A DNA stretch of 54,028 nt from a virus (taxonomy: Duplodnaviria > Caudoviricetes): the IMG/VR virus record IMGVR_UViG_3300006754_000024, positions 1 to 54,028 of that record. One strand, given 5' to 3'. The translations under genes and the position numbers were made by a program. Numbering within the stretch: the stretch's first letter is position 1; the number at the start of each line of letters is the position of its first letter. Below are positions 13,767 to 52,722 of this stretch, in pieces. Under the pieces are notes generated by a model. That model was not told the DNA's origin. It searched no databases and saw only the letters and a program-made list of their open reading frames with translations.

Positions 13767-13792
13767 GGAGCTCGTTCGAGGGATACTCCCAT

Positions 13793-14074
13793 ATGCTTTT
13801 GATTGACCTCACATCCGGAATCGCCTCGAGCGATCCGGAGACTGTTCATGTGGAATGGGCGAAGGCCTATGTCGCCGCTCGAGCTCTGCATGAAACTACC
13901 GACCTTTCGGTTTGTATCGTCGTAAAGGACGATTACCACATCGAGGGGCTTGCCCTTACTTACGAAGGGAGAATTCTATGGGCGGTACCGATCGGATATC
14001 CGGAATCCGACATCCAGTGCTTGCTCGCTGATTTCTGCGACTGGATCGACTCTCTCTATCCAGCAGAAGCCTGA
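13793..14074 (+). CDS. Hypothetical protein
   Basis: 93 aa; TGATG-coupled to the recombinase gene. Confidence 0.55.
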   Translation: MLLIDLTSGIASSDPETVHVEWAKAYVAARALHETTDLSVCIVVKDDYHIEGLALTYEGRILWAVPIGYPESDIQCLLADFCDWIDSLYPAEA

Positions 14075-14868: not shown

Positions 14869-14879
14869 GAGTAGGGACA

Positions 14880-15209
14880 ATGGCAGTAAGCGGAAATATG
14901 TTCGACGGCACCGTCGCAGTGGTGGCATCATCCGGAACCTCGGTGGAGCCCGTGCTGGAGATTCCCGACAATTGCCATACGGTAGTTATCCTCAATCCGG
15001 ATACGACAAATACTGTCCTCGTGCAGCTCGGCACAGCTGGGGGAGCAATTCCAGCTGCGAACGCGGCTGTCATTCCGCCTTCCGCGACCCTTTCTCTCGT
15101 GGTGGGAACGCTCAGCCAGCGGGCCAGCAGCGGAGCGAACCTCATTTTCGATACCAATGCCGGAGCCGTCACTGCTCAGCTCATCTATGTTAACGGGGTG
15201 AGCTCGTGA
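14880..15209 (+). CDS. Small beta-rich protein, possible virion component
   Basis: AGGAG RBS; alternating beta-strand pattern rich in V/T/A/G. Confidence 0.6.
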   Translation: MAVSGNMFDGTVAVVASSGTSVEPVLEIPDNCHTVVILNPDTTNTVLVQLGTAGGAIPAANAAVIPPSATLSLVVGTLSQRASSGANLIFDTNAGAVTAQLIYVNGVSS

Positions 15210-15916
15210 GCCTGAACCCATGGAAATACGGAAAGTCCGGGTATACGATCAAAACGGCCGGAGGGGGCGGCGGGGGAGATATCACCTGGACCGATGTTGA
15301 TCTAAGCGCGGGCACCGTCGTGCAAGATCCGGCCGCGATTGTCACTGGCGCTTCCTTCGGAACTACGAGCTCGATAACGCTTGGAGCAGGAGATCCTGGA
15401 AATATCGGAGCAGGAGTCCCGGACTGCCCTATCGTGCGTTGGCTGATTGGATCTCCTCCCGACTGGACGGCCAATGCTCAGGTTCTTCTACAAATGAAAT
15501 TTACAGGTACTCCGAACGAAAACTACAACTTCTATTTGGGGGTCTACGACGGAGTAGTGAGCACGAACACCGGGATATGGGGCGCGATGCGCTGCGATAA
15601 TGGTGCCACCCTTGGCGGTACCATGGGAACGACAGGCTCGAGCGGAAATGCTGCCGCCAATGTTTCGGCAAGTGGGGGCAATTTTTGCCTGGCCTTTGAT
15701 CTGGACGGAGATGACGCGGAGGCTCGAGGCCTCCTCAACCGATCGGTGAGTAATACGGGGCCGGCTTACGGGCGCTACGAACAAAACCTCAACGCAAACA
15801 GCTGGACCTCTACCGATATGTACGGTTTCATAGCGATCGGAGCGACCACCAATAGAGGCGGAGGGACCTTCGCTGGGATTCAGATCCGGTATGCCTTCGT
15901 TCCGGCTTTCACCTGA
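15206..15916 (+). CDS. Beta-rich putative spike/receptor-binding protein
   Basis: GTGA coupling; short N-terminus, Gly6 linker, then a G/T/N-rich beta domain. Confidence 0.55.
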   Translation: MSLNPWKYGKSGYTIKTAGGGGGGDITWTDVDLSAGTVVQDPAAIVTGASFGTTSSITLGAGDPGNIGAGVPDCPIVRWLIGSPPDWTANAQVLLQMKFTGTPNENYNFYLGVYDGVVSTNTGIWGAMRCDNGATLGGTMGTTGSSGNAAANVSASGGNFCLAFDLDGDDAEARGLLNRSVSNTGPAYGRYEQNLNANSWTSTDMYGFIAIGATTNRGGGTFAGIQIRYAFVPAFT

Positions 15917-16161
15917 TGCCTATCTTCGAGTATCGCTGTGCGCTCTGCGGCCACCGAAAGGAGCTCCTTCAAAGGTCTTTCGAGAGCTCCGCTCCGGTAT
16001 GCCCTCACTGCACCTCTATGCGAGGCGGCAAGACGCGAGTGACATCGGTAATGGTTCGGGTGATCTCTAAAGCGAGCTTCTCTCTCAAGGGGTCTGGCTG
16101 GTTTCGCGACGGATACGGACTACAGGAGAGCTCGAGCTCGAGCTCAGAGAAAGACCAGTGA
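15916..16161 (+). CDS. FmdB-family zinc-ribbon protein
   Basis: MPIFEYRC..CG...CPHC...FSLKGSGWF. Confidence 0.85.
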   Translation: MPIFEYRCALCGHRKELLQRSFESSAPVCPHCTSMRGGKTRVTSVMVRVISKASFSLKGSGWFRDGYGLQESSSSSSEKDQ

Positions 16162-16694
16162 ACATCCTGGGAATCGATCCGGGAACCAAGTCTATTGGGT
16201 ATGCGCTCGTCTCTCCTTGGGACGCTCGCGAGTTCCGCCCGACCAGGCCGATCCTGATCGGAGCTACCCGTCACACGTCCACCAATGTAGAGCGCAGGCT
16301 CGTCGCAGCCCAAAAAGCGATAGAGGAGATCCTGAAACAATGCGAAGCTCATGGGCCTTTTTCAATAGTTTACGAAGAGCCTCCCGCTCAGTGGCGCTCC
16401 AAAACAGGTGGAAGAGGACGCCAGCTGAACCAACGCGCATCGTTCATGCTGGGGCAGAGCTGCGGCATGATCCGAGCAGTGAACCAATCGAGAGGAAACC
16501 CGATTCCCAAAGCGGTTCCGGTGAGCTCGTGGAGAAAGGTGGCTCGGCAGCTGGGTGTGGTCCACCGTTCCGCGAAAACTGACACGGTGGAATGGATCCG
16601 ATCCAAATTTGAACTCGAAGTAAAACACGACGCGGGAGAGGCCTATGCGCTTGCGCTCGCCTACATCTCTTGCCCTACGATTGCACGGGGGTAG
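16158..16694 (+). CDS. ruvC: RuvC-like Holliday junction resolvase
   Basis: ILGIDPGTKSIGYA, VYEEP, HDAGEAYALA. Confidence 0.85.
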   Translation: MNILGIDPGTKSIGYALVSPWDAREFRPTRPILIGATRHTSTNVERRLVAAQKAIEEILKQCEAHGPFSIVYEEPPAQWRSKTGGRGRQLNQRASFMLGQSCGMIRAVNQSRGNPIPKAVPVSSWRKVARQLGVVHRSAKTDTVEWIRSKFELEVKHDAGEAYALALAYISCPTIARG

Positions 16695-16709
16695 CTGATC
16701 CCATATTAT
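16681..16709 (+). promoter_or_regulatory. Sigma70-like promoter upstream of the primase-helicase gene
   Basis: TTGCAC (16681-16686), 17-nt spacer, TATTAT (16704-16709). Confidence 0.55.
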
Positions 16710-16710
16710 G

Positions 16711-16749
16711 AAAACCCCCCTCCGGCCTGGAAAAGCGGAGGGGGGTTTT
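16711..16749. terminator. Perfect 14-bp hairpin (terminator or attenuator)
   Basis: AAAACCCCCCTCCG-N11-CGGAGGGGGGTTTT. Confidence 0.6.
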
Positions 16750-16788
16750 GGAATACACCACACGGAGGACAACCGACATGGCAAGACT

Positions 16789-23113: not shown

Positions 23114-23923
23114 ATGAGACTCCCTCCCCCACCCTCCGGTACCGCTGTGCGCCGCGTTCGTTTCCGCGAAGGCGCACCTATCGCCGGCCATGAAGTGTTC
23201 GAGCTCCCCCAGTGGAACGGGATGTCGGACAAGAAACGAGTGGCCTACATCCGAAAGCTCGTGAAGCAATACGGGAGAGACCCACGTATTCGCGAGCAAG
23301 CCGTCGCCATTATCAAGGAGGCGAATGCGCCTCCTCGCGACTACCAGGCGCAAGCGGCTGCTCTCCTTCACTGGGTGAATCAGAATATCTATTACGTAAA
23401 CGAACCCGCTGAGCTGTTACAAAGCGCCTGGCGGACCCTTCAGGTTCGATCGGGCGACTGCGACGATTGTCACATCGTTCTGAGCTCGCTCGCGGAGTCC
23501 ATTCGTCTCCCGTGGAAGACGGTTCTTAGCGGAAACAGGAACGGCCAGCGCGTTCGCTGGATCGAGGGCACTCCCGAACCGAAGGGAGTGAAATGGGCGC
23601 ACATATATACCCTGCTCGGTTGGCCTCCCTTTCGGCCTCAACAGTGGATGCTGGCTGATCCGTCACTCCGCAACAGCTATCTCGGGTGGGACATCGTGAA
23701 CGCTCCAGGGATGCCTCCGGTCCCAGGAGCTCCCCCAGAAGCGATGCCTGAAATGAGCGGATACGGGGCTACCGAGTTCGGGCCGGTCCAAGACGGAGAG
23801 GTCGAGGCAATCGTACAGGATGCGAAGCGAAAAGCCCGGTGGGAATCCATCGACTGGAAGAGCGTAGCGACGCTCGGTATCCCCGTTTTCGTTTTCCTGA
23901 TGGTATTGGCCCGCCAGAAATGA
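23114..23923 (+). CDS. Transglutaminase-like cysteine protease (candidate maturation protease), membrane-anchored
   Basis: GDCDD (Cys), WAHIY (His), LADP (Asp) triad; MSGYG before the C-terminal TM. Confidence 0.8.
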   Translation: MRLPPPPSGTAVRRVRFREGAPIAGHEVFELPQWNGMSDKKRVAYIRKLVKQYGRDPRIREQAVAIIKEANAPPRDYQAQAAALLHWVNQNIYYVNEPAELLQSAWRTLQVRSGDCDDCHIVLSSLAESIRLPWKTVLSGNRNGQRVRWIEGTPEPKGVKWAHIYTLLGWPPFRPQQWMLADPSLRNSYLGWDIVNAPGMPPVPGAPPEAMPEMSGYGATEFGPVQDGEVEAIVQDAKRKARWESIDWKSVATLGIPVFVFLMVLARQK

Positions 23924-38849: not shown

Positions 38850-40154
38850 ATGGCAACTCGTCGGTATTCACGGCGACGGCGCAACACAGGCGCTCTGCTC
38901 GTCAACCCACGCCGTCGGCGTCGGACCAGGAAGAAGAGGACTAGCGCGAAATCGCTACTCTCCCGCCTGCGCCGTCGCAAGACCACAAGTAGCAAACGCA
39001 AGCGCAGTGCAGCCGCGAAGAAGGCAGCAGCCACCCGGCGTCGCAACGCGACTCGTCGGAGCAACGCTGCCAAGCGTGCCGCTCGCACTCGTCGCCGCAA
39101 CGGAACCAAAAGGGGCCAGCGTCGCCGTACTGCTCGCCGGGCATACACCCGCCGCCGTAACGGTACAACTCGAGGGATGCGTCGCAAGACCGCTCGCCGA
39201 GCGTATACCCGTAGACGGCGCAATACTGGAGTCATGACAGGGATTCAGCAGAATCTCAAGAAGGTTCCAGTCGTTGGTGGAATGCTGAGCGATATCGTTG
39301 GGCTCGGTGTCCCTGCCGCGTTCGGTGCTATCTCGATCCTTCCGATCGAAATGGGACTGAAGGCCGGTGGACGGTACCTCCCCGAGAAGCTCCAAGCCGT
39401 TTCCTTCACCGTCGGAGGCCTCCTGATGGGTGCCCTGGCGAAGAAGTTCCTTCCCGCCGGGAAGTTCCGGGATCAAATCAGTGTCGCTCTCGCGACTGCT
39501 GGTGGTGCCGTCGACTTCTACCGCTGGCGACAGGGGCAAACCACAGTGGCGGCAATCGAAGTCGCTGAGGCTGCGACGGCCGGGTTCGGTGAGCTCGAAG
39601 TCATGAGCGGCTATGGTGAGCTCGAAGTCATGAGCGGATACGGTGGTGGCTACGGTGAGCTCGAAGTTATGAGCGGATACGGCGATATGGGGTACGATGT
39701 CGTAAATTTTGATGTAGCGGGGGCTGGCACTTCCCTCGGAGCGTATCTTAGTGATGCTTCGATGGCCGATGCCTATTATTCTGGGAGTGATCTGGGCGCC
39801 GCCGAGCGTACAGCAGCACTGGCCGGTCCTCGCCGTTTCATGCGCCGTTTTCCATCTCCGGGACGTAGGCTTCACCGCCTACGTCAAACCGGTTCTTCCC
39901 AATCCCAGCCCTCGGCTAACGCCGGGAAGCCGGGATGTGGGAAGAAGTGGATGATATGTCTCGTTGGGTTTGACAACTTTCAGAAAATTGCAGCTCTCCC
40001 CACCAAGGAGCGCAGACGGGTTATCCGTTCTCTGAAGCGTCAAGCCAAACAATCTCTTCCTGATATGCTCTCGACCGATGATTCGATGGATCCAAATACA
40101 GCGATGGATTCTACCGAAGGGTTCGGAGCCCTCATGTACGCTGGTGGCTACTAG
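38850..40154 (+). CDS. Protamine-like core/membrane precursor protein
   Basis: AAGGAG RBS; ~125-aa Arg-rich N-terminus with RRRN repeats; hydrophobic helices; ELEVMSGYG three times. Confidence 0.8.
   Translation: MATRRYSRRRRNTGALLVNPRRRRRTRKKRTSAKSLLSRLRRRKTTSSKRKRSAAAKKAAATRRRNATRRSNAAKRAARTRRRNGTKRGQRRRTARRAYTRRRNGTTRGMRRKTARRAYTRRRRNTGVMTGIQQNLKKVPVVGGMLSDIVGLGVPAAFGAISILPIEMGLKAGGRYLPEKLQAVSFTVGGLLMGALAKKFLPAGKFRDQISVALATAGGAVDFYRWRQGQTTVAAIEVAEAATAGFGELEVMSGYGELEVMSGYGGGYGELEVMSGYGDMGYDVVNFDVAGAGTSLGAYLSDASMADAYYSGSDLGAAERTAALAGPRRFMRRFPSPGRRLHRLRQTGSSQSQPSANAGKPGCGKKWMICLVGFDNFQKIAALPTKERRRVIRSLKRQAKQSLPDMLSTDDSMDPNTAMDSTEGFGALMYAGGY
39588..39683 (+). repeat. Coding tandem repeat, GELEVMSGY three times
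   Basis: ggtgagctcgaagtYatgagcggMtaY three times, with a 9-nt GGY-coding insert before the third copy. Confidence 0.9.
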
Positions 40155-40211: not shown

Positions 40212-40859
40212 ATGCCTTACGGTATCCCAGGAGTTCCCATGCTCCCCCCCGGTGGCCCCGGAGTTTCCGGCGTTCCACTTGAACTTCCGAAGAATGTTGT
40301 CCGGGTTGGAGAGCAGGCTTTGTGGAGCACTTGCCAGCTCGCTATCGGTGGCGTCGCTTCTACTACTGCTCGAGTTTTCTCGACTCCCATTGGTCAAACT
40401 GGTCAAGGGTATGGTGCTGCTCTAAGCCTTGCAGAGACGAATCTCAAGGAAGGAGGCCGCATACCGGCCGGTCTTGCATACGATACGTTCGGCGTAGCTT
40501 GTGTGATCCAGGGTGCTGCTGCTGTCGTTACTCCTACTGTAGCCGACGCTTCTGTCATCTATAAAGACGGCGTGCTCTCATGGGATTTTTTGCAAACGGT
40601 AATTGATATTGCGCCTTGTTCCTTGATTGGAGCTGGTGGCGGTCTGTTCGCTATCGGGTCCGGTGCAGCCGCAACGGAGTACGTCAATAACTCGAACGGT
40701 GGATTGTGGGTGTACAGGCGCCACCCCGTTGCGTTGCCTGCCAACACAACCTTCAACATTCTGCTTCGTTTCGGCTCGAGCGCTCAGCCTCTCGTTGCTG
40801 TCACGAACGTGAAGATTGTTCTCGTTGGTGCCTATCGTCAGGCGATCGAAATCGCCTGA
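40212..40859 (+). CDS. Putative major capsid protein, single jelly-roll type
   Basis: Strong AAGGAG RBS; own terminator; many T-ending codons; all-beta pattern; FSTPIGQ...LAETNLKEGGRIP segment; follows the core protein gene. Confidence 0.6.
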   Translation: MPYGIPGVPMLPPGGPGVSGVPLELPKNVVRVGEQALWSTCQLAIGGVASTTARVFSTPIGQTGQGYGAALSLAETNLKEGGRIPAGLAYDTFGVACVIQGAAAVVTPTVADASVIYKDGVLSWDFLQTVIDIAPCSLIGAGGGLFAIGSGAAATEYVNNSNGGLWVYRRHPVALPANTTFNILLRFGSSAQPLVAVTNVKIVLVGAYRQAIEIA

Positions 40860-40865
40860 TTCGCA

Positions 40866-40904
40866 CAGAAAGGGAGGGGCAAGCGATTGCCCCTCTCTCT
40901 TCTG
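40866..40904 (+). terminator. Terminator hairpin after the putative capsid gene
   Basis: GAGGGGCAA-GCGA-TTGCCCCTC stem with a GNRA loop, extended by pyrimidines. Confidence 0.7.
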
Positions 40905-40930
40905 GAATTTAACCTCGGACCGGAGCTCAT

Positions 40931-41554
40931 ATGTCCTACGGTGACGGATATTACGGTGGCGGGCCTCCTGTTGCGGCTGGAAGCCCCTTCTCGAACCAGG
41001 TAGTCGGTAGCGGCGGCATGCCTGGAATGCAGGCACAGCTCAATCCTCCGAGCAGAGCGAGCTCAGGCGGGCCAGCCGGCCAGCCTCTTCCTCCCTTCAT
41101 GCGGACCCCTGTCTGGCCTCCTCAGCTCCTTCTGAGTACGAACCGCCAGGTTGCCCACCAGCATCGCGACTATGTCGTTCAGAACCTCAATTCGCCCGTC
41201 AATACGGCCTCGGTTCAGACTATTCGCTTCGACATTCCCTGTCTGGTGTACGCGATCCAGGCATCTGTCGAGAACACGGCAGCTCTGAATACCCAGATCG
41301 GAGCCAATGGGGATCTCAACACCTTCCTTTGTCTGCTCGAGCACTCGAATGGAGATCGTCTCACGACCCAGGCCTGCCTCGGTGGTTCTGTGTTCGGATC
41401 GGCAGAGCTCCCTCGACTGATTGGCGGAAACGGATGGGTCTTCGACCGTGGTGGAGCTCTCGTCTTCACTTTCACCCCGCTCGCCGCCAATATGCGGATC
41501 AATGTCAACGTGTGGGCAATCGAAGAGCGTGGGCCACGAAATCTAACTCGATAG
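40931..41554 (+). CDS. Putative second or minor jelly-roll capsid protein
   Basis: Gly/Pro-rich N-terminal arm (MSYGDGYYGG), then a ~130-aa beta domain. Confidence 0.5.
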   Translation: MSYGDGYYGGGPPVAAGSPFSNQVVGSGGMPGMQAQLNPPSRASSGGPAGQPLPPFMRTPVWPPQLLLSTNRQVAHQHRDYVVQNLNSPVNTASVQTIRFDIPCLVYAIQASVENTAALNTQIGANGDLNTFLCLLEHSNGDRLTTQACLGGSVFGSAELPRLIGGNGWVFDRGGALVFTFTPLAANMRINVNVWAIEERGPRNLTR

Positions 41555-41564
41555 GGGGCCGACG

Positions 41565-42200
41565 ATGTCGACACGCAGGCCCACCCACATAGGGTACTAC
41601 GAGGATATGTCCCAGATCCCCGAGCCGGTTCCGGCTCCGGGGGAATGGAGCGACAAGGGACAGTGGCACAATCCTGCTGGAACCCTTCCTTTTCCCAATC
41701 CCACCAATATGCCCATCGGTGTGTGGAACGGCATTCCGACGATGCTGGTGTGGACTGCGGGAACGGCCCCCAGTGTGCGAACGGCCCAGTGGCGTAGTCC
41801 TGTATTCGATCTCCGGCCGGAGCAGCGTGCGGCCCGTGGTGAAGTACGAAACCAAGGAACCATTCCTATCTGGAAGCCCTCTACCGTGACAGGTGGAGCC
41901 GGCGGCCGTCTTTGGGTTCAGATCGGAGACTTTTCGACGCTCGCCGTTAGCGTGACAAGTATGGAGATGAACTTTCGCGAGCGAGGACATATCCAAGATC
42001 CGAACTCCATGTCTGTCATCTGTCCGAACGAGGACATCACTGACAAATACGTGCCAGGGATGCAGGATTGCATTCTGAGCTTCACTCCACCTGGTGAGGG
42101 CTACCCGGTACGCTACTGGCAGCTGATCCTACAGTTCGACGTGTACGATGCAACCCTGCCTTCAGATCCAGCTTTGCAGGTTGAGGGGAGCTACTACTAA
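41565..42200 (+). CDS. Putative structural beta protein
   Basis: Pro-rich arm and beta-strand pattern; lies in the capsid gene cluster. Confidence 0.5.
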   Translation: MSTRRPTHIGYYEDMSQIPEPVPAPGEWSDKGQWHNPAGTLPFPNPTNMPIGVWNGIPTMLVWTAGTAPSVRTAQWRSPVFDLRPEQRAARGEVRNQGTIPIWKPSTVTGGAGGRLWVQIGDFSTLAVSVTSMEMNFRERGHIQDPNSMSVICPNEDITDKYVPGMQDCILSFTPPGEGYPVRYWQLILQFDVYDATLPSDPALQVEGSYY

Positions 42201-42607
42201 TGCCTATTTTGGCCGATATCTCCCAAGCTGGGCCACCCGCCTCGAGTGGGACTGCCACCTGGTACCAGGAAGTCCTTCTCAACGCAGGCGGAGCTTTCAA
42301 CAGCCAGGCCTTGATGGTGCCCGCGCTCCCCGCGCTCACCTTTTGGGCTGAGGTCTTCAATGCGGGTGGCGTCGCCGTTACGCTTCAACCTCAGTTCGCT
42401 GCTCGAGGAACGACTAATGTGGTCTTGGGACAGCCCAACCCGGTTCCCACCTGGTTAGACCTGGCTCCGCCCGTCCTGATCCCCGCGTTCGGTGGCGGAG
42501 TAACTCTCAACAACTACATCTGCCCGTGCGTCTGGATCCGGATGGTGCTCACTCGAACCGCCGCCGTAAACACCAGTGTCCGCCTCTACATGGCTGGGAG
42601 CGTGTGA
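42200..42607 (+). CDS. Small beta-rich structural protein (penton/vertex candidate)
   Basis: TAATG coupling; 135 aa; hydrophobic beta strands. Confidence 0.5.
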   Translation: MPILADISQAGPPASSGTATWYQEVLLNAGGAFNSQALMVPALPALTFWAEVFNAGGVAVTLQPQFAARGTTNVVLGQPNPVPTWLDLAPPVLIPAFGGGVTLNNYICPCVWIRMVLTRTAAVNTSVRLYMAGSV

Positions 42608-45195
42608 TGCCTGGCTACAAGATCGTCCTTCGCAAAAACGGAGCCAAGCGTGGAGAGCTCACCGGCTACGCCACCAAGAGCTCGGCCGTCGCAGAGGCTC
42701 AGACCCTCGCTGACAGCGCCGGAGGCGGAGTCAAGGTGTACGTGGAGCCGGTGAAGGCCAAAGCCAACAGGAAGGCTCCCAGGCGTCGAAATACGCAGTT
42801 AAAAAGGGACCAGAAGGTAAAACTGAGCGATTCCGCTCTCTCCCGGAGGTACTCTGGCGATCGAGCTAAAGGAAAGCAGTGGCGGGGTACTATATTTGAA
42901 GTGGTCGGACCGCCAGGAAGTGGGGCGGGAGAATGGGGAGCCGAGATGTGGTCCGCCAACGGAGAAAAGGGGTACATCGTCGTAAACCAAACGGATCCTC
43001 ATGGGAGGTGGTACGCATTAGGAGATGTGGTCGCCGCATCCACCGCCACTAAGAAGGCTCCCAGGCGCAAGAAGAATAGCGACAGAGAGCTCGTCGCCTT
43101 CCCCGGAATAAGGAGGCCATCGGACTATCCGGGAGGAAAAAACAGCTACGACGAGGACTTCTTCCAGGGATACCGGGCCGGAGAGAAGGCCTTGGCTCGC
43201 AAACGCAAGACCCCTCTTTCGGGGGTGGACGCCGAGAGGTACTTTCGCAGGTATGGACATGGGCATGGTAGCTGGTGGATCAACGGATTCCGTGCCGCTA
43301 TCGCTGTGGACCGTGGAGAATATGCGACGAAGGACTACAAGATAGCGGTAAAGGTGGGCCTGGTTCATCCTCCGGGACGTTTCAATCCTAAGCGGAAGAA
43401 CAGGAAGACGAAGCACCGTCCAGGAAGCGCGAAGACCCCAGCTGGTTTTCTCTCCACCGAGGGCCAGAAGCTCGTGGTGAGGTCGAATATCACAGGGAAT
43501 ATCCTTCCTAAGAGCTGGACCGGGTTCGCTTTCAGCTTGGACGGAGACTCGGTCATGAAGATCGGGCGTTCGGGGGGCGAGCGTTCCTACGAGGTGGCCA
43601 AGCGGATTCGGAGATCGAACACCAGGAAGAACCCGACAACGGCCGAGGTCGCCAAGCTCGCAAAATGGCAGAACCTAACTGGGCTCTCGAAGTCGAAAAT
43701 CGACAAGCTCGCACAGGAAGCCTATCGCATGGGCGATGTAGGCCACATGAGCACGCTCCAGCTCGGGAAACACTTTTCTCGGTTCCTCCCCGCCAAGTCG
43801 AAGAGCACGCACACCAACCTGAGAGGATGGGGAGACTTTCTCTTCGAGCTCGGATGGTTGGAGCTCCCGCACCTTCCGCGTAAGAACCAGGGCTATGATC
43901 AAACCAAAAAGGTTCTTCAGCAGGCGTCTAAACTCATCGACCAGGGCAAATTCAAACAGGCCGATTCCTTAATCCGTGGTTCGGGTGGAAGCAGGGCAGA
44001 CCTATCGAATATTTTGGGCTCGTCCAGAATGAAGAAGATGGCAACCTGGGCTAGCGGTACCACCAGGCGGAAAAACTATTCGACTGGCGACGCCTGGCTC
44101 CAAGAGGCCGACACGGAAATGGAGGAGGAAGGCACCGTCGGAGCCTTCACCAAGCAGGCCAGGCGAGCCGGGTACAAGGATACAATGGCCTTCGCTCGAG
44201 CCGTCATGAAGGGCTGGCGGAGCGGGAAGAAAAAGGTCTACAACAAGAAGACCAGAAAGCAGCAAGGGATCACCCAAAAAACGATGTACCGGGCCAACTT
44301 CGCGATCAATGCTCAGAAGCGGCGGAATCCCCACGGAGCGCCCCAACGCATGACAATGGACCTGGGCGAATTCAGGTGGATCGCTGGCCCCTACTCGACC
44401 GTCGGGAAGGCAAACAAGGCGAAGGAAGCCTCTCACCATCGATCCTGGGGCGCCAGGTACCCCAAGACCTACACGCGCGTAAGGAAGGAAGGAGGCGCCT
44501 ACCATGTCTATTCTTACGATCCAGAGGTTGCCTCTCGTTACAACCCAGCATGGGGCGAGATGGCCGGCGCGGTAGGAAAGGGGCTCGGAAAGGCCGGCAA
44601 AGCCGCCTGGAAGGGCGCCAAGCGAGGAGCCCAGTACGGCTACGAGTACGGAAAGGAAGGAGCCGCTCGCGGAAAGGAGACGGCACAGGCGGCCGTGATC
44701 GCTGCCAACCTGAAGGACTTTCAGAGATGCGCCAAGAAGCTCCACATCACTCCGGGAGAGCTCCAACAGCTCGAGCCCTATGTCGACGCCATCGACAAGG
44801 CGCAGGCCCATATCGAGTCGACCCAAGAACGGCGCTCCTCGAGGGGAGCTCAGAGACAGACTGCTCTCGCCAAGAAATGGAACGGGAAGCGTCGGAATTC
44901 AACGCCTGGAAAACGTGGGTGGCACCCGGTACTTTTCGGCTCGAATCTGATAATCTCAGGTGTCGGCCGGGATACGAATGGGAACAAGGTCATCAAAGTT
45001 AGTTACCCCAACTCGAGAGCCTGGTCGATCCAGACTCTCGGAACGCCGATGCACGGGCTCTTGCGGGGCGTTACAGCGAGATATGAAATCCTGCCGGACA
45101 TCTCGAGCGCCATCGAGCCCATGCTCATCGACCACATCCGAAAGTACGGATCTGCAAAGCAAAAGAAGGGACTACGAGTCTACTCCGGCGGGTAG
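42607..45195 (+). CDS. Basic modular polyprotein of ~10 small modules separated by [RK][RK]N/NP
   Basis: TGATG start at 42607; delimiters every ~60-120 aa. Confidence 0.75.
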   Translation: MPGYKIVLRKNGAKRGELTGYATKSSAVAEAQTLADSAGGGVKVYVEPVKAKANRKAPRRRNTQLKRDQKVKLSDSALSRRYSGDRAKGKQWRGTIFEVVGPPGSGAGEWGAEMWSANGEKGYIVVNQTDPHGRWYALGDVVAASTATKKAPRRKKNSDRELVAFPGIRRPSDYPGGKNSYDEDFFQGYRAGEKALARKRKTPLSGVDAERYFRRYGHGHGSWWINGFRAAIAVDRGEYATKDYKIAVKVGLVHPPGRFNPKRKNRKTKHRPGSAKTPAGFLSTEGQKLVVRSNITGNILPKSWTGFAFSLDGDSVMKIGRSGGERSYEVAKRIRRSNTRKNPTTAEVAKLAKWQNLTGLSKSKIDKLAQEAYRMGDVGHMSTLQLGKHFSRFLPAKSKSTHTNLRGWGDFLFELGWLELPHLPRKNQGYDQTKKVLQQASKLIDQGKFKQADSLIRGSGGSRADLSNILGSSRMKKMATWASGTTRRKNYSTGDAWLQEADTEMEEEGTVGAFTKQARRAGYKDTMAFARAVMKGWRSGKKKVYNKKTRKQQGITQKTMYRANFAINAQKRRNPHGAPQRMTMDLGEFRWIAGPYSTVGKANKAKEASHHRSWGARYPKTYTRVRKEGGAYHVYSYDPEVASRYNPAWGEMAGAVGKGLGKAGKAAWKGAKRGAQYGYEYGKEGAARGKETAQAAVIAANLKDFQRCAKKLHITPGELQQLEPYVDAIDKAQAHIESTQERRSSRGAQRQTALAKKWNGKRRNSTPGKRGWHPVLFGSNLIISGVGRDTNGNKVIKVSYPNSRAWSIQTLGTPMHGLLRGVTARYEILPDISSAIEPMLIDHIRKYGSAKQKKGLRVYSGG

Positions 45196-45201
45196 TTCGG
45201 A

Positions 45202-48200
45202 ATGATCGAAGAACTCAAAAAGCGGATACGGAACGCTGGCACAGAGAGCTCGGAAAAACGAGAAGTACAGCGCGAGCTCGAGAGCCATGGACACCGGAAA
45301 CATCCAGAGTCCCACCAGGCCACCCTCGAAGACCGCAGGGTGGTACGCATGTACCTATGGAGGGCTACCCCGCTGGGGCACCTCTGCCTGGTTACCGGTC
45401 CCAGCGTGGAGCCCAGTCTCTACGAGCTCTACGAGGCCGCTCCAGGAGAAGAGCCCTCAGAGGTTTACTTCCCTTCAAAGCGAGGCAAGCCGGCTCTCAC
45501 CGTTCGCACGAATCCCCAGGCCCGAGTAGGCAAGGTCCGAGAGGCTAAGGACGGTAGCAAATACGTGCTTTGGAGGCCCGTATTAGCGGACGGCAGCCGA
45601 CCTCGCGTGTATCTGGACGCCGAGGAGCCGGGGATTGACGCCGAGCTCATAGATGTGATGGAAGCTCAGGAACAGCTGGCAGCTGGAAAGAGAGCGGTGG
45701 AGCGTCGCGTAAAGGAAGCCAAAAAGGAAGGGAAGCGGGGTATTTTCAAGGGAGGCTCCGGACGGAAGATCATAACTGGAGCTCCGAAGGCTAAGCCCAT
45801 GGAGCGGGCCGCCTCTCGCACGCCTCTTTTTGACTCTGAGGGAAAGGAATATCTCGCTACATATATGGTAATCCCAGCCCACAGGGACGGGATGGGAGAC
45901 CTTCGATCCTCGAACCTACCTGGTTCCTTCGAGGAGACTCCCCACTACCCCACCGTCTTCCAAGCCCGAAGCCTACAGCGACTCGGAGAGACGCGGAAGA
46001 TCGAGAAGATTGCCGCCAACCTGGACGCGGAAAGAGTTCTCCTCCCGCACAGCGATGCCACCCTGGGCACCCCGGTGGTCTGGGAGGGAGACGATAAAGA
46101 GCACAGAATCGCTGGAGAGCAAGTCTATACCCCGAAAGGCACCTACTATGTGCTGGGTGGGAACGGACGAGCAATCGCGATCCTGATGGCCCCCACGGGG
46201 AAATATCAGTCCTACTCGAGACGGGGAAGGTCTCTCTGGTCCGACGTGTGGCCCGCTGGGAGCTCTCCAGCTGGCACGAGAGACGTTCTGGTCCGCCTGG
46301 CCACCAAGCCCGACGGAACGCCACTGTCCTTCGCTCAGGCCCGTACTCTTGCGGGACGAACCCAGAAGAGCGCTTCTGGAGAAGAGTCTCCCATCGGAAA
46401 GGCTCTCTCGCTCATCCGTTCACTCGGCATCGAGCGCGTGGCCGATCTCCCGCCTTTTGTCTGGAAGGGGATAATCACCCAGGACAATGTGGAAGAGTTC
46501 CAGGAGTTCAATCCAGCCTTTGCGAGAGCGGTGTTTGCTTCGATGGGGGCAGCTCGAGCAGAGAGCTACCAGCAGGACTCGGCGCTTCTCGCTACGCTCT
46601 TCAACGACATTATGGTCGGCTACCTTCCCAGGCGCTTCCAGCTCCAAGGGTTCGTTTCTGAGAAACAGGAGCGAGCTCTACTCGCCGCTCTTCCTATTAT
46701 CGTCGCGATCCACCAGGGAGTTCAGGATCGATCGGTCCAAGACAAATGGGACCTTTTCCCGTTGCTCGATGCGGCTTCTCGTTTCGCCCAGGCAATCAAG
46801 AACAAGTCGGATTCGCAGGCGATTGCCATGGTCGAGGCCGCTGCCTCTCAGATTCAGATGGGCGAAGGCACGGGAATAGCGGAGAAGTTCAAGTCTCTGT
46901 TCGACGAACTCCCTCTCTTGGGTGTTTTGTTCGGCCTGGTCCTCAAGAAAGCAGAGAAGTCTCGCGACCCGGCATTGACGGTAGAGAAATACCTCACCCC
47001 CTACGCTGCCGCAGCATTCGATCCCGGAGAGAGCGCTGCCCAGTCGGGACTGTTTGCGGCTCCAGGCCGTCCCGATGCCGGCAAAGACCCCACCGAGATC
47101 CTTGCTACCGAGCTCGGCGTCCGCCTACCGCGCCGGATGCGCGAGGCGACGGTGGAGCAGGGGCGGTTGATCGCGAATCCCAAATTCCCCATGGGAGGAG
47201 AAAAAAAGCCGTGGGCTCCGGCGATGGTCGAGGCCATCGACCAGTTCCCGGTGGGCGCCATCGTCAAGCTTCGACCAACGCAGGGGTGGAGTCGCACATT
47301 CCCTCATCGGATCCTCTCCGATTCCGTCCTCGATAACCACTACCGGGTCGGAACCCACACCTGGATGGAGAACCTCCAGAGCGTATTCCTGGAGACGGAC
47401 CCCGTACACCCTGAGACTCACGAGCTACTGAGGGATAGTCGTGGTGGCAAGTACAACTACCAGGTGCTCGGTACCGAGGATGTGGAGCTCGTCTGGAGCC
47501 CAGAGCCAGAGCCGGACCCGGAGGAGAGCCAACAACGCCTCTTGAACCGGAAAGGACAGCTCCGCTTGCGGAAGGCCGGGAGCAGGATCCTCGAGGAGCT
47601 CTACCTACGCGGCCCTACCCCCTACGCTGAGACTCCCGAAGGAAAGCTCGCTGATGGACCGCAAGAGCTCCTCGATAAAGGGCTGGCGTCGAAGAAGACG
47701 TGCATCGCAGCTGAACATACCCTTTACGACCGGGAGACCTGTGTTCTGCGCCTGACGAAGAGGGGAAGGGACTACGCGAAGAATCGCCGTAGAGCCGAGC
47801 GCACGCACCAGGCCGCCAGGCAGGGGAAGCTGTGGAACAAAGGCCCCCACTATTTCGATGAACTCGGAGAGCTCGGAGCTCCGTCGATTGGTGAGAAGGG
47901 GTACAAGCCGGCTCCCGATTTCGGCAACGCCTACGGAGGGCAGACACCCTACGAGCTCGCGGACCGCCTGGTGGGGAACGCTGAGGTATTGATGGAAGAG
48001 CCCGAGCTCTACTGGGCCTACTGTGCCGAGCTCCCGGAGGCTTGTGGAGGCCTGGCCGATTCGGATTTCTCCTTAGCGGATATGCTTCAAGTCCCTTTTT
48101 CCGGTCCGGACGGAAAGCGAATGACTGAAGCGGAGCGGGCGGGAATTGCGCTTTCTGCCCTGGCCGTCACTGCGGAAGCGCTGCCTGACAGGTGGAGCGG

Positions 48201-51200
48201 AGAGAAGATCATACTCGGCGAGAGAAAGAGCAGGAAGGGACCCACTACCTTGATCGAGGCTCGAAGAGGCGACTCCGGGGAGGTTCCGATGTGGGCTGCG
48301 ACTGCGGCCCTTACCGACTGGCTGGCCTCGCTGGTTCCCGGCTATTCCCAGGTCTTGCGCCTGGTTAACATCGACAAGAAGACAGCACAGGACTTCATCG
48401 AGAAGCACCACTCGGCGCTCCCCTACCTAAACGCTCGTGGCCTGCTCTTTGCCCTTGGATTGATGAAGGGCTCCCGCCTGGTGGCCGTAGCGACGGTTAA
48501 CTCGAATACGGCCAACCTGAGCAAGACCCGTAGGGTATTGAGCGGCGAGCTCGACGTGAAAGATGTCCTCGAGCTCACCCGTGTGGCATCGGATGGGAGC
48601 GTAAAGGGGGCTGCGTCGAAGCTCGTGGCCCGTGTGATCGATATCATGGAGCAGGGCAAGCGGAGCGGAGGCGACGCACCCGCGCTCCTAATGACTTACC
48701 AGCTCGCTACCGAGTCTGGAACGACCTACAAGGCCTTGAAGGACAAGGGATTGAGGCCCGTGGCAGAGGTAAAGGGCTCAGCTCCGAGCGGAGCTCGTGG
48801 TGGAGACCCGGCCGAAGACCGAGCTCTGGCACAGGTGGACAAAATACGATGGGAGTGCTGCGTCGACCCTCCCGCGATGCGGGCGGACTGGGACATCCTG
48901 GGACGCGAGCAGAAGACTCTCTGGAACCCGAAGGAAGGGGAAACCTCCTGGTTCAAGGGGGATCAGGTTCGATTCACGGGTGCCCAGAGCGAACATGATG
49001 GGTTCTGGCAGGCCGTCTATATTGACGGGCACCGGAAAGGCCAGATCGTCTGGGTCTACCCTGAACATGCAGGCGTTCGGATGCTCCACGGAGAAGAAAA
49101 ACTCCAGCCCCGCGACAATCCGAAGAAGTCTCCGCCTGGCTCCTTCAAGTCCTGGGAAGAATACTATCTGTGGAAGATGAACGGGATCAACAGAGCCATG
49201 CTGATCACGGAAGACGCTATCCGAAGCATGGACCCGGAGCGAGCCAACATGCCCGGTGGCGCGGTGGCCCACTACCGCACCCTCGAGAAGAAACGCCGCG
49301 ATCTCCTCGAGCACATGGAGCTCGCAGGGGTGAAGCTCAGGAACCCCGGAGAGCCAGAGGACCGGTTCGCCCCCTTCCTGAACGCAAAGGTGGGCCAGGT
49401 GTTTCTGGTTAGGGCTACGGACTATCCTGGAGCTCCGAAACGGAAATGGATGAAAGACACGCTGCTGGCCTATCGGGTCTACAAAAAGCCCGATATCTCG
49501 GCGGTCGCGCCCTACCTTATCGACCCGGAGGGCGCTGAGATCGAGGTCGAGCCGGTAGGCGGCACGAAGGGACGCGACGGAACCTTCCTAATCCGACCCA
49601 ATTTTGAGAAAGATAAGCTCCGCACTATGATCCTCCTCCGGGATAAAAACGGCCACCATGTGACGGGGCACCCCATCGAGTTCGTCCGCCATGCTGCCGG
49701 CCACTTGGATCTACCCGCTGAGAGCTCGGGCCAGACGGTGATGTTCAACCCCGAAGAAGCACCCGGCCAGGTAGAGTTCGAGTTCCTGGGAGCGGTGCCC
49801 GTTCTTCACTTTGCCTCTGGGACGAACAGGCCTGGAAGTATCCGGGGATTCGCAGACCTGGGCAAAGCCGTGGGCTCTGCCTTCGCCTCTGTAGACAAAA
49901 AGTCCGGCCGCTGGGTTCGCGAATGTCGCGGACCCTGTCTCGAGGAGCTCGCTCGAGCCGCTTCGTTGGGTATACCGGTGTTTCTGGATTCAGGTGCATT
50001 TAGCGAGGTCGACTTCCCCGAAGACGGTCCGCCAGTTGTAGCGGTGCCCATACCAGAAGAGAGCTGGGCCGAGAGGTTCGATGTCTATCGTTACCTGGCC
50101 GACGCGGGAGGGAAACTGGCCAACGTGGTAGCGCCCGACATGGTAGGCCACCAGGTGGAGAGCTTTCAACGCCTATCCGCCTACAAAGACGAGGTGAACG
50201 AGCTCCTGGATATGGGCGCATCGGTTCTCGTGCCGCTCCAGTTAGGCCCGATTCCGCTTCACGAATATCACGACCAGGTCGACGAGCTCCTGGGCCGGAA
50301 GGACTGGATCCCAGCTCTTCCGTTCCAGAATGCGGCTACCTCCCCTACGCAGCTGGGAGAATACCTGCGCAAAAAGACTCCAGTTCGTCTTCATCTCCTG
50401 GGAATAGGACCCAGGAAGAAAGCAGCTACAGCCGTGGCTCAAGAGATCAGAGAGAACTCTCCGGGTACCCAGGTACAGATGGACAGTGTGGTGATCAAGG
50501 CGCACGTAGGGCGCAAGAGACGGAAGACCGGAGATCCTCGAGGGGAGATAACAGCTGCTCAAGACGAGGCTCGAGAGCAGCTGCTCGAGGAACGCTACAT
50601 CGGCTCCCAGCGAGAGTCCGTTCCTGACTACACGGACCTGGTAGGAATGCCGAGCTCCTGGGCATCCGAGGCGGCACTGAAGCGACTCTCGAGTGCGGCC
50701 CAACTCTCGAGCTCGGAGCGGAAAGAGCTCATCGCCGACCCCGACGAGTTCTTCCAGCGCGAAACCTTCGCTGGCATCGATCACGGGATCCCGTTCTACC
50801 TCGAGCTCGAGCAACCTATTGAGCTCGAGCTCGGTAAGCGTTTCCACTCTCTCGAGACTTTCGAGGCCCAACGCATGGGAATCCGAGAGGGGCTCAAGGG
50901 AATCTACCCAGGGGGCCAGGAATACATTACCAACCCGGAGCAAGAAGAGGGGCACGTTCCGGGAATCGACACTCCGGGACATCCCGGACTTCAGATGGGT
51001 CTTTTCGGTGGTGCATCCTATTCGGACGAGCAAACCGCATCGCCTGGCAGAATAACTATCTTGAACATGGGACTTGGCCGCGACTCGCTCACCATGCTCT
51101 GTCTGCTCGCAGATGGAGAGCTCGTCTGGGACGGTAAGAAACACGGACCCGAAGACGTGGACGCCGTCGTGTTCTCCGATACAGGCGGAGAATGGAAGCA

Positions 51201-52722
51201 CACCATGGACCTAATTCCGAAGGTCGAGAAGTTTGCCAAGAAGCACGGCATCCGATGGCTCAACCTTCAGAAGCCACAGGCAGGCACTAAGAGCGGAGAA
51301 CTACGCGACAGCTGGCTCCAGGCCATGAAAACAGCGAGACAAGATCGAGAGCAAGGATGGGCCGAAGTATATCGGGAAGTGATTGCTCCGATGTACCGCG
51401 AAAAAGATGTCCGGCTCGATGAGATCCGCGCCGAAAAGAAGGCGGAGATCAAAGAGAAAAGAGCCGAGCTCAAGAACCAGGGAATGGACAAGGATCAGAT
51501 GGCACCGGAGCTCGACGCTATCAGAGAGAAATACGCCGTCAGGATGAAGGCTCTCAAAAAGAAGTACAAGGCCAAGGCTGCGGAGATCAAAAAGGAAGGA
51601 GGATTCGCAGGGAAGGCGGAGCGTGCGTGGTGGGCTCCTCAAGACAAGGAGCGGAGGCTCCACTATGGCACCATCGAAGAGCGAGCGGCTGCGGGTGTCT
51701 ATCACTTGCGCCCTGAGATCCTGGTGGACTTCGCCTGGAAAGGAACGATCCCCCTCCGCGACGATAAGAGCTGCACGGGAAACCACAAGGTGGCTCCGAT
51801 TCGGAAGGTGACAGAGGACCTGGCCATCGAAAAGTTCGGCCCATGGGCTACTAATACTAAGTGGGGGAGCGAGGTCCGTGACAAGAAGCGCCTTCCTCAC
51901 TTGAATCTGATCGGTCTCGCCGCCGACGAAACTGACAGGCTCGCGAAAGGGGGAGACGTGGGCTGCTTCGAGGCGAGCTACGTTACCGAGGCCTACCCGT
52001 TGGAGGAGATGGGAATCGCGAAAAACGACGAGCAGCCCTATCTCGATAGCTGCGGATTCGGAGAGACTCGAAAAAGCGGGTGCTGGCTGTGCCCCTACCA
52101 ACCTCTCGGATGGTGGTGGGCGCTCTCTGTCCTTCATCCGGACAAGTTCGAGCGGGCAGCACAGGCGGAGTACCAGGCGACACTCCGGGATCCAAAGCTC
52201 TATTTCATCGGACGCAAGAAGAAGGGGAAGTCTCTGTCGCTGGCCGAGGCGGTAAAGGTATGGAGAGAAGAGAATCCAGACGCCTCTCCGGAAGAAGTGC
52301 TCGACAAGCAATATGCAAAGTGCAAGGTGAAGTTTGGGAAGAAGAAGAACCCAGTAGCACCCGACTCCTGCTGTCCCGACTGCAACCGATTCGTGGACCT
52401 ATGGAACCAGTTCGGAGAACCTGGATGGCTAGAACGCTACGGCTCGAGCTCGAGCACCAGGCCCAACACTCCGGCGTCTGGGGTTCTCGTCAACACGGGA
52501 AGCAAGCTGTCGATTCAAAGCCTTTCCTTCGATCGAGCTCTATTCAACAAGACCGAGGCGACGCGCTGGGCCAGGCAGCACGGGTTTTCGGTTCCGAAAG
52601 TCCACCTGACACCGAACCTGATTAAGATACGCCAGACTCATCCCTCCAAGTTCAAGCGCGGATCGTTCCGAACCAAGTCACTGACAGAAGGAGTAAAGGC
52701 AATTGTAGGAGTTCCACGATGA
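45202..52722 (+). CDS. 2506-aa polyvalent protein with ParB-like, Mom-like GNAT, TGT/DpdA-like and PAPS-reductase-like domains
   Basis: YPTVFQAR/GTPVVW/GGNGR (ddrB-like ParB); AQDFIEKHH/LELTRVASDG/TYQLATESG (Mom/XF1762-like); FLDSGAFS/APD/PLQ/HLLG (TGT fold); MGLGRDS/FSDTGGE/YPL/KSGCWLCPY (PP-loop). Confidence 0.85.
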   Translation: MIEELKKRIRNAGTESSEKREVQRELESHGHRKHPESHQATLEDRRVVRMYLWRATPLGHLCLVTGPSVEPSLYELYEAAPGEEPSEVYFPSKRGKPALTVRTNPQARVGKVREAKDGSKYVLWRPVLADGSRPRVYLDAEEPGIDAELIDVMEAQEQLAAGKRAVERRVKEAKKEGKRGIFKGGSGRKIITGAPKAKPMERAASRTPLFDSEGKEYLATYMVIPAHRDGMGDLRSSNLPGSFEETPHYPTVFQARSLQRLGETRKIEKIAANLDAERVLLPHSDATLGTPVVWEGDDKEHRIAGEQVYTPKGTYYVLGGNGRAIAILMAPTGKYQSYSRRGRSLWSDVWPAGSSPAGTRDVLVRLATKPDGTPLSFAQARTLAGRTQKSASGEESPIGKALSLIRSLGIERVADLPPFVWKGIITQDNVEEFQEFNPAFARAVFASMGAARAESYQQDSALLATLFNDIMVGYLPRRFQLQGFVSEKQERALLAALPIIVAIHQGVQDRSVQDKWDLFPLLDAASRFAQAIKNKSDSQAIAMVEAAASQIQMGEGTGIAEKFKSLFDELPLLGVLFGLVLKKAEKSRDPALTVEKYLTPYAAAAFDPGESAAQSGLFAAPGRPDAGKDPTEILATELGVRLPRRMREATVEQGRLIANPKFPMGGEKKPWAPAMVEAIDQFPVGAIVKLRPTQGWSRTFPHRILSDSVLDNHYRVGTHTWMENLQSVFLETDPVHPETHELLRDSRGGKYNYQVLGTEDVELVWSPEPEPDPEESQQRLLNRKGQLRLRKAGSRILEELYLRGPTPYAETPEGKLADGPQELLDKGLASKKTCIAAEHTLYDRETCVLRLTKRGRDYAKNRRRAERTHQAARQGKLWNKGPHYFDELGELGAPSIGEKGYKPAPDFGNAYGGQTPYELADRLVGNAEVLMEEPELYWAYCAELPEACGGLADSDFSLADMLQVPFSGPDGKRMTEAERAGIALSALAVTAEALPDRWSGEKIILGERKSRKGPTTLIEARRGDSGEVPMWAATAALTDWLASLVPGYSQVLRLVNIDKKTAQDFIEKHHSALPYLNARGLLFALGLMKGSRLVAVATVNSNTANLSKTRRVLSGELDVKDVLELTRVASDGSVKGAASKLVARVIDIMEQGKRSGGDAPALLMTYQLATESGTTYKALKDKGLRPVAEVKGSAPSGARGGDPAEDRALAQVDKIRWECCVDPPAMRADWDILGREQKTLWNPKEGETSWFKGDQVRFTGAQSEHDGFWQAVYIDGHRKGQIVWVYPEHAGVRMLHGEEKLQPRDNPKKSPPGSFKSWEEYYLWKMNGINRAMLITEDAIRSMDPERANMPGGAVAHYRTLEKKRRDLLEHMELAGVKLRNPGEPEDRFAPFLNAKVGQVFLVRATDYPGAPKRKWMKDTLLAYRVYKKPDISAVAPYLIDPEGAEIEVEPVGGTKGRDGTFLIRPNFEKDKLRTMILLRDKNGHHVTGHPIEFVRHAAGHLDLPAESSGQTVMFNPEEAPGQVEFEFLGAVPVLHFASGTNRPGSIRGFADLGKAVGSAFASVDKKSGRWVRECRGPCLEELARAASLGIPVFLDSGAFSEVDFPEDGPPVVAVPIPEESWAERFDVYRYLADAGGKLANVVAPDMVGHQVESFQRLSAYKDEVNELLDMGASVLVPLQLGPIPLHEYHDQVDELLGRKDWIPALPFQNAATSPTQLGEYLRKKTPVRLHLLGIGPRKKAATAVAQEIRENSPGTQVQMDSVVIKAHVGRKRRKTGDPRGEITAAQDEAREQLLEERYIGSQRESVPDYTDLVGMPSSWASEAALKRLSSAAQLSSSERKELIADPDEFFQRETFAGIDHGIPFYLELEQPIELELGKRFHSLETFEAQRMGIREGLKGIYPGGQEYITNPEQEEGHVPGIDTPGHPGLQMGLFGGASYSDEQTASPGRITILNMGLGRDSLTMLCLLADGELVWDGKKHGPEDVDAVVFSDTGGEWKHTMDLIPKVEKFAKKHGIRWLNLQKPQAGTKSGELRDSWLQAMKTARQDREQGWAEVYREVIAPMYREKDVRLDEIRAEKKAEIKEKRAELKNQGMDKDQMAPELDAIREKYAVRMKALKKKYKAKAAEIKKEGGFAGKAERAWWAPQDKERRLHYGTIEERAAAGVYHLRPEILVDFAWKGTIPLRDDKSCTGNHKVAPIRKVTEDLAIEKFGPWATNTKWGSEVRDKKRLPHLNLIGLAADETDRLAKGGDVGCFEASYVTEAYPLEEMGIAKNDEQPYLDSCGFGETRKSGCWLCPYQPLGWWWALSVLHPDKFERAAQAEYQATLRDPKLYFIGRKKKGKSLSLAEAVKVWREENPDASPEEVLDKQYAKCKVKFGKKKNPVAPDSCCPDCNRFVDLWNQFGEPGWLERYGSSSSTRPNTPASGVLVNTGSKLSIQSLSFDRALFNKTEATRWARQHGFSVPKVHLTPNLIKIRQTHPSKFKRGSFRTKSLTEGVKAIVGVPR

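Follow-up and report, generated by a model that had tools for sequence, protein, structure and literature searches.

Polyvalent proteins of phages and conjugative elements are described as single polypeptides that carry many unrelated domains, shuffle these domains fast and are encoded beside virion genes, and for some members a processing before or after packaging has been proposed (Iyer et al. 2017, PMC5512222, cited here and below from its accessible passages). Two other described systems share features with the protein reported here: the head maturation of T4 and of giant phages (SPN3US gp245), in which packaged proteins, several in one phage, are cut at one short shared motif with an invariant residue before the scissile bond (P1), as described in the accessible parts of PMC10052503 and PMC5694885; and the asparagine peptide lyases of families N6 and N7, in which the scissile residue is an Asn, followed by Pro in N6, and many of which, in the accessible parts of PMC3207474, are virion proteins cut in the particle. 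Here, we describe P0001, a protein encoded at 42607-45195 (+ strand) of IMG/VR record IMGVR_UViG_3300006754_000024, a 54,028-bp virus record that was analysed in its entirety and is called the window below. P0001 fits the polyvalent proteins in architecture, mosaicism and genomic setting, and it adds to them a conserved junction dipeptide, Asn-Pro (NP). By sequence comparison we establish an excess of the junction motif, the conservation of the junctions, the independence and shuffling of the modules between them, and a conserved gene order, and we read P0001 and its relatives as a variant of phage polyvalent proteins with an Asn-Pro bead architecture. In the open-access literature, taken without the supplements of PMC5512222, we found no description of phage polyproteins delimited by Asn-Pro.

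The comparison with polyvalent proteins holds in several respects. With ten mutually dissimilar modules, P0001 lies within their range of 2-15 distinct domains per polypeptide; it is mosaic, and it stands in a phage late-gene setting, between a jelly-roll protein and a giant protein of 2506 amino acids (aa). The ParB-like and anti-restriction repertoire of the class (PMC5512222) has its counterpart in this giant neighbour, which carries ParB-, Mom- and PAPS-reductase-like domains. However, the accessible passages of PMC5512222 describe no conserved junction motif (the word 'linker' occurs 0 times in them), whereas the P0001 family has one. The same source credits processing to an embedded zincin-like metallopeptidase, a frequent though not universal component, and none was detected in P0001 or in the 2506-aa protein. 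The modules of P0001 are also small (60-120 aa) and, unlike the domains described there, nearly all of unknown family. As to recognised conflict domains, neither P0001 nor its stand-alone modules have any Pfam or PHROGs match, and module J occurs elsewhere together with ArdA and GNAT.

P0001 comprises 862 aa. Its ATG at 42607 overlaps the upstream stop codon by one base (TGATG), GGGAG stands 7-11 nt upstream, and its homologues begin with the same first module. We divided it into ten modules, A to J, on basic linkers that end in Asn (a slash marks the junction). Module A (aa 1-62, 42607..42792), the usual N-terminal leader, ends in APRRRN62; module B (aa 63-157, 42793..43077), with few homologues, ends in APRRKKN157; and module C (aa 158-265, 43078..43401), a conserved domain, has the double junction RFN260/PKRKN265. 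There follow module D (aa 266-342, 43402..43632; TRKN342/P), module E (aa 343-427, 43633..43887; PRKN427), module F (aa 428-490, 43888..44076; TRRKN490), which is predicted to be a three-helix domain, and module G (aa 491-574, 44077..44328; QKRRN574/P), the most conserved of the lineage. Module H (aa 575-646, 44329..44544; SRYN646/P) is poorly predicted in the structural model, module I (aa 647-764, 44545..44898) ends in GKRRN764, and module J (aa 765-862, 44899..45192) is widespread and also found in polyvalent proteins without NP junctions. The nine delimiter Asn that the earlier note had read from this DNA all lie where it placed them (N62 at 42790, N157 at 43075, N260 at 43384, N342 at 43630, N427 at 43885, N490 at 44074, N574 at 44326, N646 at 44542 and N764 at 44896), and their spacing is indeed 63-118 aa.

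Does this delimiter exceed what composition alone would give? In composition-preserving shuffles (2000 per test), [KR][KR]N was expected 1.17 times in P0001 (standard deviation, s.d., 1.06) and occurs nine times, a count that 0/2000 shuffles reach. The control [KR][KR][DQSTHG] is not enriched (11 versus 10.4), and thus the excess concerns Asn in particular. Of the nine strict hits, N11 lies within a conserved RKNG of module A and is no junction; RFN260/P and RYN646/P are Asn-Pro sites that lack two basic residues. The codons at the junctions vary (AAT and AAC are mixed and flanking codons differ) with no nucleotide motif, which places the signal at the level of the protein, not of the DNA.

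The delimiter had further been proposed to be a tag shared with the protamine-like Arg-rich protein (38850..40154, +) and the 2506-aa protein (45202..52722, +), and this claim divides. In its basic form the motif is shared with the Arg-rich protein, where [KR][KR]N occurs 5 times versus 0.5 expected (0/2000 shuffles). In the 2506-aa protein the basic form is at chance (1 versus 1.1), and there the motif is common as Asn-Pro (10 versus 3.5 expected, p=0.0015). Basic-basic-Asn as such is not the family-wide signal, which is Asn-Pro; P0001 is a family variant in which the Asn is kept and the two preceding positions, P2 and P3, are basic. As a separate observation, NP is mildly enriched in the 29 other + strand open reading frames (ORFs) of the window (30 versus 17.5, z 3.0), and several window ORFs (e.g. 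26216, 28932 and 487) have an NP among their first 25 residues, as far as their uncertain start codons allow.

Across relatives, the signal is much stronger. A HMMER search over 1.84 billion representatives returned 311 proteins at E<=1e-3, and the best 150 of these 311 were combined with eight from a word-indexed search into a set of 154 proteins. Of the 400 dipeptides, none is as enriched in these homologues as NP (426 versus 128.2, z 26.3; the expectation calculated per protein is 119.9), and RR comes next with a z of 12.3. A logo of 332 distinct NP sites from 60 NP-rich proteins shows Lys plus Arg at 57% of P3, 39% of P2 and 30% of P4, and at about 30% of P2'-P4' beyond the Pro (P1'), over a background of 17%; Ser makes up 13% of P2. 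The spacing of NP is bimodal, with 49 short gaps (10 aa at most) beside a main mode of 60-120 aa (median 80). Together, the position-specific logo and the bimodal spacing look less like a generic linker and more like an enzyme recognition site that comes with spacer peptides. The architecture is conspicuous in single loci: the ORF at 9260-11740 of L004 (826 aa) has 11 NP versus 1.5 expected, and there and at L002 1547-2848 and L005 5111-6757 tandem genes consist nearly entirely of 60-120 aa pieces ending in KKRN/P. The 2176-aa protein P0144 has 19 Asn-Pro junctions whose flanks are not basic, from which we conclude that Asn-Pro is the part that stays invariant, while the preference for basic residues belongs to particular lineages.

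Alignments of P0001 respect the same boundaries. BLASTP of P0001 against the 154 homologues gave 161 high-scoring segment pairs (HSPs) in discrete blocks, about 39 on module C (aa 158-260), 6 on F (428-485), about 68 on G (491-574) and about 46 on J (765-862), with 2-3 on module A, almost none on D and I, and no homologue of module E among these matches. The ends and starts of the HSPs cluster at the delimiters. The concatemer proposed in the earlier note would have been contradicted by alignments running across delimiters without the motif, and the opposite was observed: in 59/70 delimiter-crossing HSPs an NP or basic-Asn lies within 6 columns (NP itself in 47/70), as against 21/1485 at control positions inside modules (NP itself in 12/1485).

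The modules are also mobile. They have no significant similarity to one another, and modules C, F, G and J have stand-alone homologues of 69-126 aa (86-126 aa for C), some of which may be fragments of short contigs. Each homologue has 9-31% of P0001 in common with it, and a comparison of module order in relatives shows the modules in other orders and contexts, alone, or within unrelated polyvalent proteins. Stand-alone and shuffled homologues thus bear out the idea of P0001 as a concatemer whose small modules are unrelated and move independently. Module A, found by phmmer in 15/154 proteins, is N-terminal in 13/15. Proteins with module G in last place finish in its basic tail with no NP, and at L005 an A-type module opens the ORF that comes directly after an ORF ending in module G. 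In L003, one ORF matches the 2506-aa protein over residues 1-102 and, at its own position 865, takes up the match again from residue 91 on, so that about 760 aa of other NP-bounded modules are inserted exactly at TN104/P of the 2506-aa counterpart. Module J also occurs in large proteins that lack an NP excess, one of which carries ArdA, and P0144, with its 19 Asn-Pro, has a GNAT domain. NP junctions therefore mark some lineages and not all polyvalent proteins. These neighbours of module J and the domains of the giant protein lend indirect backing to an anti-defence role of the cargo, which the earlier note had also considered. Searches with modules G, J and C in PDB sequences and profiles gave nothing credible.

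Apart from this comparison, a distant relative of the window, the IMG/VR contig L001, encodes at 6000-19000 several successive proteins that resemble each other in their Gly-rich N-termini (MSY.G.G type) and have Pro-rich spacers and a membrane anchor at the C-terminus; in one of these proteins module G comes last, behind SNP and an Arg tract.

The structural prediction agrees with independent domains in the stretch that was modelled. An AlphaFold2 (AF2) model of aa 428-646, built from 59 sequences, covers two of the ten junctions. Module F forms a three-helix domain (aa 428-486; predicted local distance difference test score, pLDDT, about 90), the pLDDT falls below 50 at 487-493 around N490, and module G is modelled with 78-97 at aa 496-570, past which confidence drops around N574. 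Rather than folding as one unit, modules F and G are thus predicted as confident domains with the delimiters in low-confidence, putatively flexible linkers at both junctions. The predicted template modelling score (pTM) of 0.43 is what is expected for domains lacking a fixed mutual orientation. Foldseek with this model found no fold match (best E >2). At the junctions, a charge-hydropathy index takes lower values (-0.47 versus -0.16, p=0.0005), a difference that is partly circular since the sites are defined by charge, which weakens it as evidence for our proposal.

Based on these observations, we tentatively propose, at a little less than an even chance, that the junction Asn are proteolytic sites cut by an enzyme of the virus. 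In this reading P0001, with its about ten unrelated domains of 60-120 aa strung on short, flexible, basic linkers that each finish in an invariant Asn (across the family, Asn-Pro with Lys or Arg preferred at P3 and P2), serves an uncultivated temperate bacteriophage as a cargo polyprotein of the polyvalent type. The protein would be packaged, and the virus enzyme would cut it, presumably at the bond after the Asn, during or after particle assembly, which would free the modules as small proteins. From the N-terminal half of the adjacent Arg-rich protein this enzyme would produce short peptides of oligo-arginine, which would neutralise the DNA in the particle, and the cleaved pieces would then enter the host along with the genome. 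Extended to the whole group, this would be a marine phage lineage with an Asn-specific maturation in which tandem polyproteins are cut at dozens of junctions, an extension that we consider rather doubtful. The same doubt applies to its agent, either a papain-fold enzyme with an undescribed Asn/Pro specificity or an enzyme-free succinimide chemistry, and to its output, a library of 60-120 aa cargo and DNA-condensing oligo-arginine peptides.

If this were true, the system would parallel, in a virus of bacteria, the core maturation of adenoviruses or asfarviruses. In adenoviruses, the Arg-rich precursors of pVII and pX/mu are cut in the particle by the packaged papain-like protease AVP, and this lineage has jelly-roll capsids and the motif (M/I/L)XGX-G. 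P0001 differs from it in the motif and the protease clan, and the adenoviruses are viruses of eukaryotes that have no multi-module cargo polyprotein. The P1 residue would be Asn, as against Glu in the head maturation of T4 and giant phages. As far as the accessible sources go, the substrates of the latter lose propeptides, while P0001 would be cut into many beads, and the proteases there are members of known prohead-protease families, of which the scanned ORFs of the window showed none. Cutting at the junctions would be proteolysis of a new specificity, that for Asn at P1 followed by Pro at P1', a bond that most proteases avoid, and this specificity could be of use as a tool. The cutting would also provide phages with a new route to package many small effectors from one gene, make modules freely exchangeable between genomes through the common junction and explain the origin of a protamine-like counter-ion in a phage. 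In practice, the Asn-Pro rule parses hundreds of 'dark' viral proteins, and splitting by it gave module-sized pieces in the relatives examined.

Which enzyme could cut the junctions? Our best candidate is the product of 23114..23923 (+), a Cys-His protein that resembles transglutaminases (papain fold) and has a hydrophobic anchor at its C-terminus; the link is weak, and we regard the assignment as less likely than not. The protein matches PF01841 (Transglut_core) with 31.4 bits versus a cutoff of 23, and its sequence contains the Cys-His-Asp triad expected of this domain, with Cys116, His163 and Asp193 invariant in 5 transglutaminase-like sequences and Asp or Glu at position 182. Homologues with 46-50% identity were found in 4/5 related virus records, and a reciprocal search returned the same 4 contigs and L034. 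In L034, a 534-aa protein with (K/R)RKN/P every 40-100 aa (7 NP versus 1.2 expected) lies 3 kb downstream of the transglutaminase-like gene. A complex prediction of the transglutaminase-like domain with aa 545-610 of P0001 scored 0.30, below the mark of 0.34, and has no bearing either way. The only cultured homologue of the candidate is gp34 of SSIP-1 (31% identity over 52% of the query, E 3e-4), a tailless phage described, in the accessible part of the literature, as containing a membrane and two types of major capsid protein. Gp34 and a 2319-aa protein of SSIP-1 are both annotated as structural, and several further structural proteins of this phage have about 210 aa. The comparison would tie an abundant uncultivated marine virus group, with 561 homologues of its jelly-roll protein, to the little-studied virion type of SSIP-1.

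Several points weigh against our proposal and its candidate enzyme. The cutting is predicted from sequence, and the lineage has no cultured member. Most endopeptidases disfavour Pro at P1', so that an enzyme cutting Asn/Pro would be unusual, and in P0001 itself P1' is Pro at only 4/10 junction Asn. NP is not enriched near protein termini (19 versus 15.4, s.d. 3.4, and 7 versus 9.7, s.d. 2.8). In the window, 47 ORF proteins were scanned by Pfam and 19 of these 47 by PHROGs, with some short ORFs outside the scan, and no known head-maturation protease family was detected among them; the prohead protease families S78, S77/U9, S14 and S49 were all absent from the scanned ORFs, and neither P0001 nor the 2506-aa protein showed a peptidase domain at E<=0.1. 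SSIP-1 gp43 shows no NP excess (3 versus 2.5), and the transglutaminase-like enzyme need therefore not be tied to NP sites. As papain-fold enzymes include cell-wall hydrolases, the protein could also be such a hydrolase of the virion. Besides gp34, the sole credible gene shared by SSIP-1 and the window is a PAPS-reductase domain; a third match came from an ORF antisense to the Dam gene. Finally, the transglutaminase-like gene was not found in the incomplete NP-type records G001 (52% complete) and G004 (64% complete).

The strongest alternative is that the junctions are never cut, that flexible positive tethers bind packaged DNA and allow the beads to work next to one another, and that Asn-Pro is kept on structural grounds, e.g. 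as a helix N-cap or turn insulating the folds; we consider this possible, though with considerably less than an even chance. The basic residues on both sides of NP, including those at P2'-P4', would suit a tether, as would the several modules that begin with a helix directly after NP, and the absence of a known-family maturation protease in the scanned ORFs and of an NP enrichment at termini is what an uncut protein would give. Classical polyvalent proteins, some of which include module J, function with no NP junctions at all, and according to the accessible passages of Iyer et al. (2017, PMC5512222) some of these proteins are delivered without being cut. However, a linker needs no invariant Asn with a position-specific preference at P3 and P2, and P0144 keeps its 19 Asn-Pro without basic flanks, from which charge is not the conserved feature. 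Neither a helix-cap nor a domain-linker role explains why the Arg-rich proteins of relatives carry up to 13 RRRN-type sites spaced 5-25 aa apart within a pure Arg tract. The tether likewise leaves unexplained the spacers of 4-8 aa between two sites and the loss of NP where a module is the last.

An enzyme-free self-cleavage, which we consider improbable, would account for the invariant dipeptide differently. As in the asparagine peptide lyases, the side chain of each Asn would attack the carbonyl of its own residue, and through a succinimide the N-terminus of the Pro would be freed; the packed capsid or DNA might speed the reaction. Pro after Asn blocks the competing deamidation route, which favours this chemistry, but an uncatalysed Asn-Pro cleavage takes weeks. 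P0144, in which Asn-Pro alone is kept and the flanks vary, is compatible with it, as is the lack of a dedicated protease among the scanned ORFs. There are precedents in the accessible parts of Rawlings et al. (2011, PMC3207474), with Asn/Pro scissile in FlhB/YscU (N6), Asn-42 in reovirus mu-1 (N7), and viral coat proteins making up five lyase families. However, the known lyases need a specific fold with a single site, Asn/Pro-Thr-His in a four-strand, four-helix fold in the case of N6, whereas here dozens of sites lie between unrelated domains and both modelled junctions fall in predicted flexible linkers. The flanks contain no conserved His, Thr or acidic residue: the commonest residues at P2' are R, A, K, S and E, and Thr and His are outside the top five at P2' and P3'. 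Moreover, P1' is not Pro at 6/10 junction Asn of P0001, which, together with the basic preference at P2 and P3, looks like recognition by an enzyme. We give almost no credence to an action of the motif outside the protein, as a 2A-like skip (NPG/P) or a DNA joint for module recombination: NPG does stand at some junctions in relatives and the modules are clearly shuffled, but the variable codons without a nucleotide motif and the logo largely refute it, as Gly is not enriched at P2', the upstream part of the 2A consensus D(V/I)ExNPG/P is absent and the junctions do not match that consensus, and we know of no 2A skipping on bacterial ribosomes.

We return to the proposal of cut junctions with the genes around P0001, where the order Arg-rich protein, jelly-roll protein, A-led polyprotein and giant protein is kept in five IMG/VR relatives. 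The Arg-rich protein has putative membrane (hydrophobic) segments and carries its five RRRN in aa 1-125. The 215-aa jelly-roll protein (40212..40859, +) is a probable capsid or cement protein; its AF2 model (pLDDT 69) resembles small viral capsid proteins and phage cement proteins, every Z being <=7.6. Searches in phages gave no match for it or for the 397-aa and 1004-aa proteins, and the ESM Atlas yielded nothing informative on the 397-aa ORF. The interval 40212-42607, from the Arg-rich protein to the polyprotein, contains four small genes (215, 207, 211 and 135 aa), of which the first, encoding the jelly-roll, has no significant sequence similarity to the second. These four may be the capsid genes of a virus that lacks the HK97 type of capsid, and no portal, terminase or HK97 capsid family was detected among the window ORFs scanned. 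A membrane-containing virion made of jelly-roll proteins is probable. Among viral structures, the jelly-roll model matched BFVD I1ZBH9 best (211 aa, E 2e-4, TM 0.52); we suspected I1ZBH9 to be a protein of SSIP-1, and a jelly-roll profile showed no similarity to SSIP-1 gp45 and gp46.

Downstream, the 10 Asn-Pro of the 2506-aa polyvalent protein lie mostly between recognised domains and divide it into 9-10 pieces. The matches are weak or sub-threshold (ParB-like at aa 252-340, Mom-like at 1050-1178 and PAPS-reductase-like at 1941-2350), and the protein may be a packaged DNA-modification polyprotein. A 395-aa module (aa 1517-1911) was considered as TGT/DpdA-like and found no support in a PDB sequence and profile search.

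As for the biology of the virus, tblastn of P0001 against cultured phages and against plasmids gave no match. A search with module G found no locus in GTDB genome contigs, and thus no prophage or host was identified from it. The window encodes a tyrosine integrase (14074-14868), a Dam methylase (3266-3796), an M15 peptidase (7284-7985, -), a RuvC-like resolvase (16158-16694), an AAA_24 protein and a helicase. The integrase, Dam, M15 and other genes point to a temperate virus of a peptidoglycan-bearing bacterium. The M15 protein is a candidate endolysin of the D-Ala-D-Ala carboxypeptidase type. Gemmatimonadetes and Pacearchaeota labels on some jelly-roll homologues derive from binned assemblies and are not host evidence.

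Two minor features recur in the Arg-rich proteins. A motif of the form RR(K/R)TARRAY stands just ahead of a hydrophobic segment in 4/4 Arg-rich proteins read (window 38850-39240, L004 3311-4018, L006 4335-5996 and L013 1976-4006). At 39587-39645 (aa ~246-265), the protein of the window contains a 27-nt tandem repeat of 2.2 copies with 90% matches, encoding GELEVMSGY units; a similar MSGYG stands near the C-terminus of the transglutaminase-like protein, and the counterpart Arg-rich proteins of L001 and L013 have YYEFSP and FYEVAP repeats.

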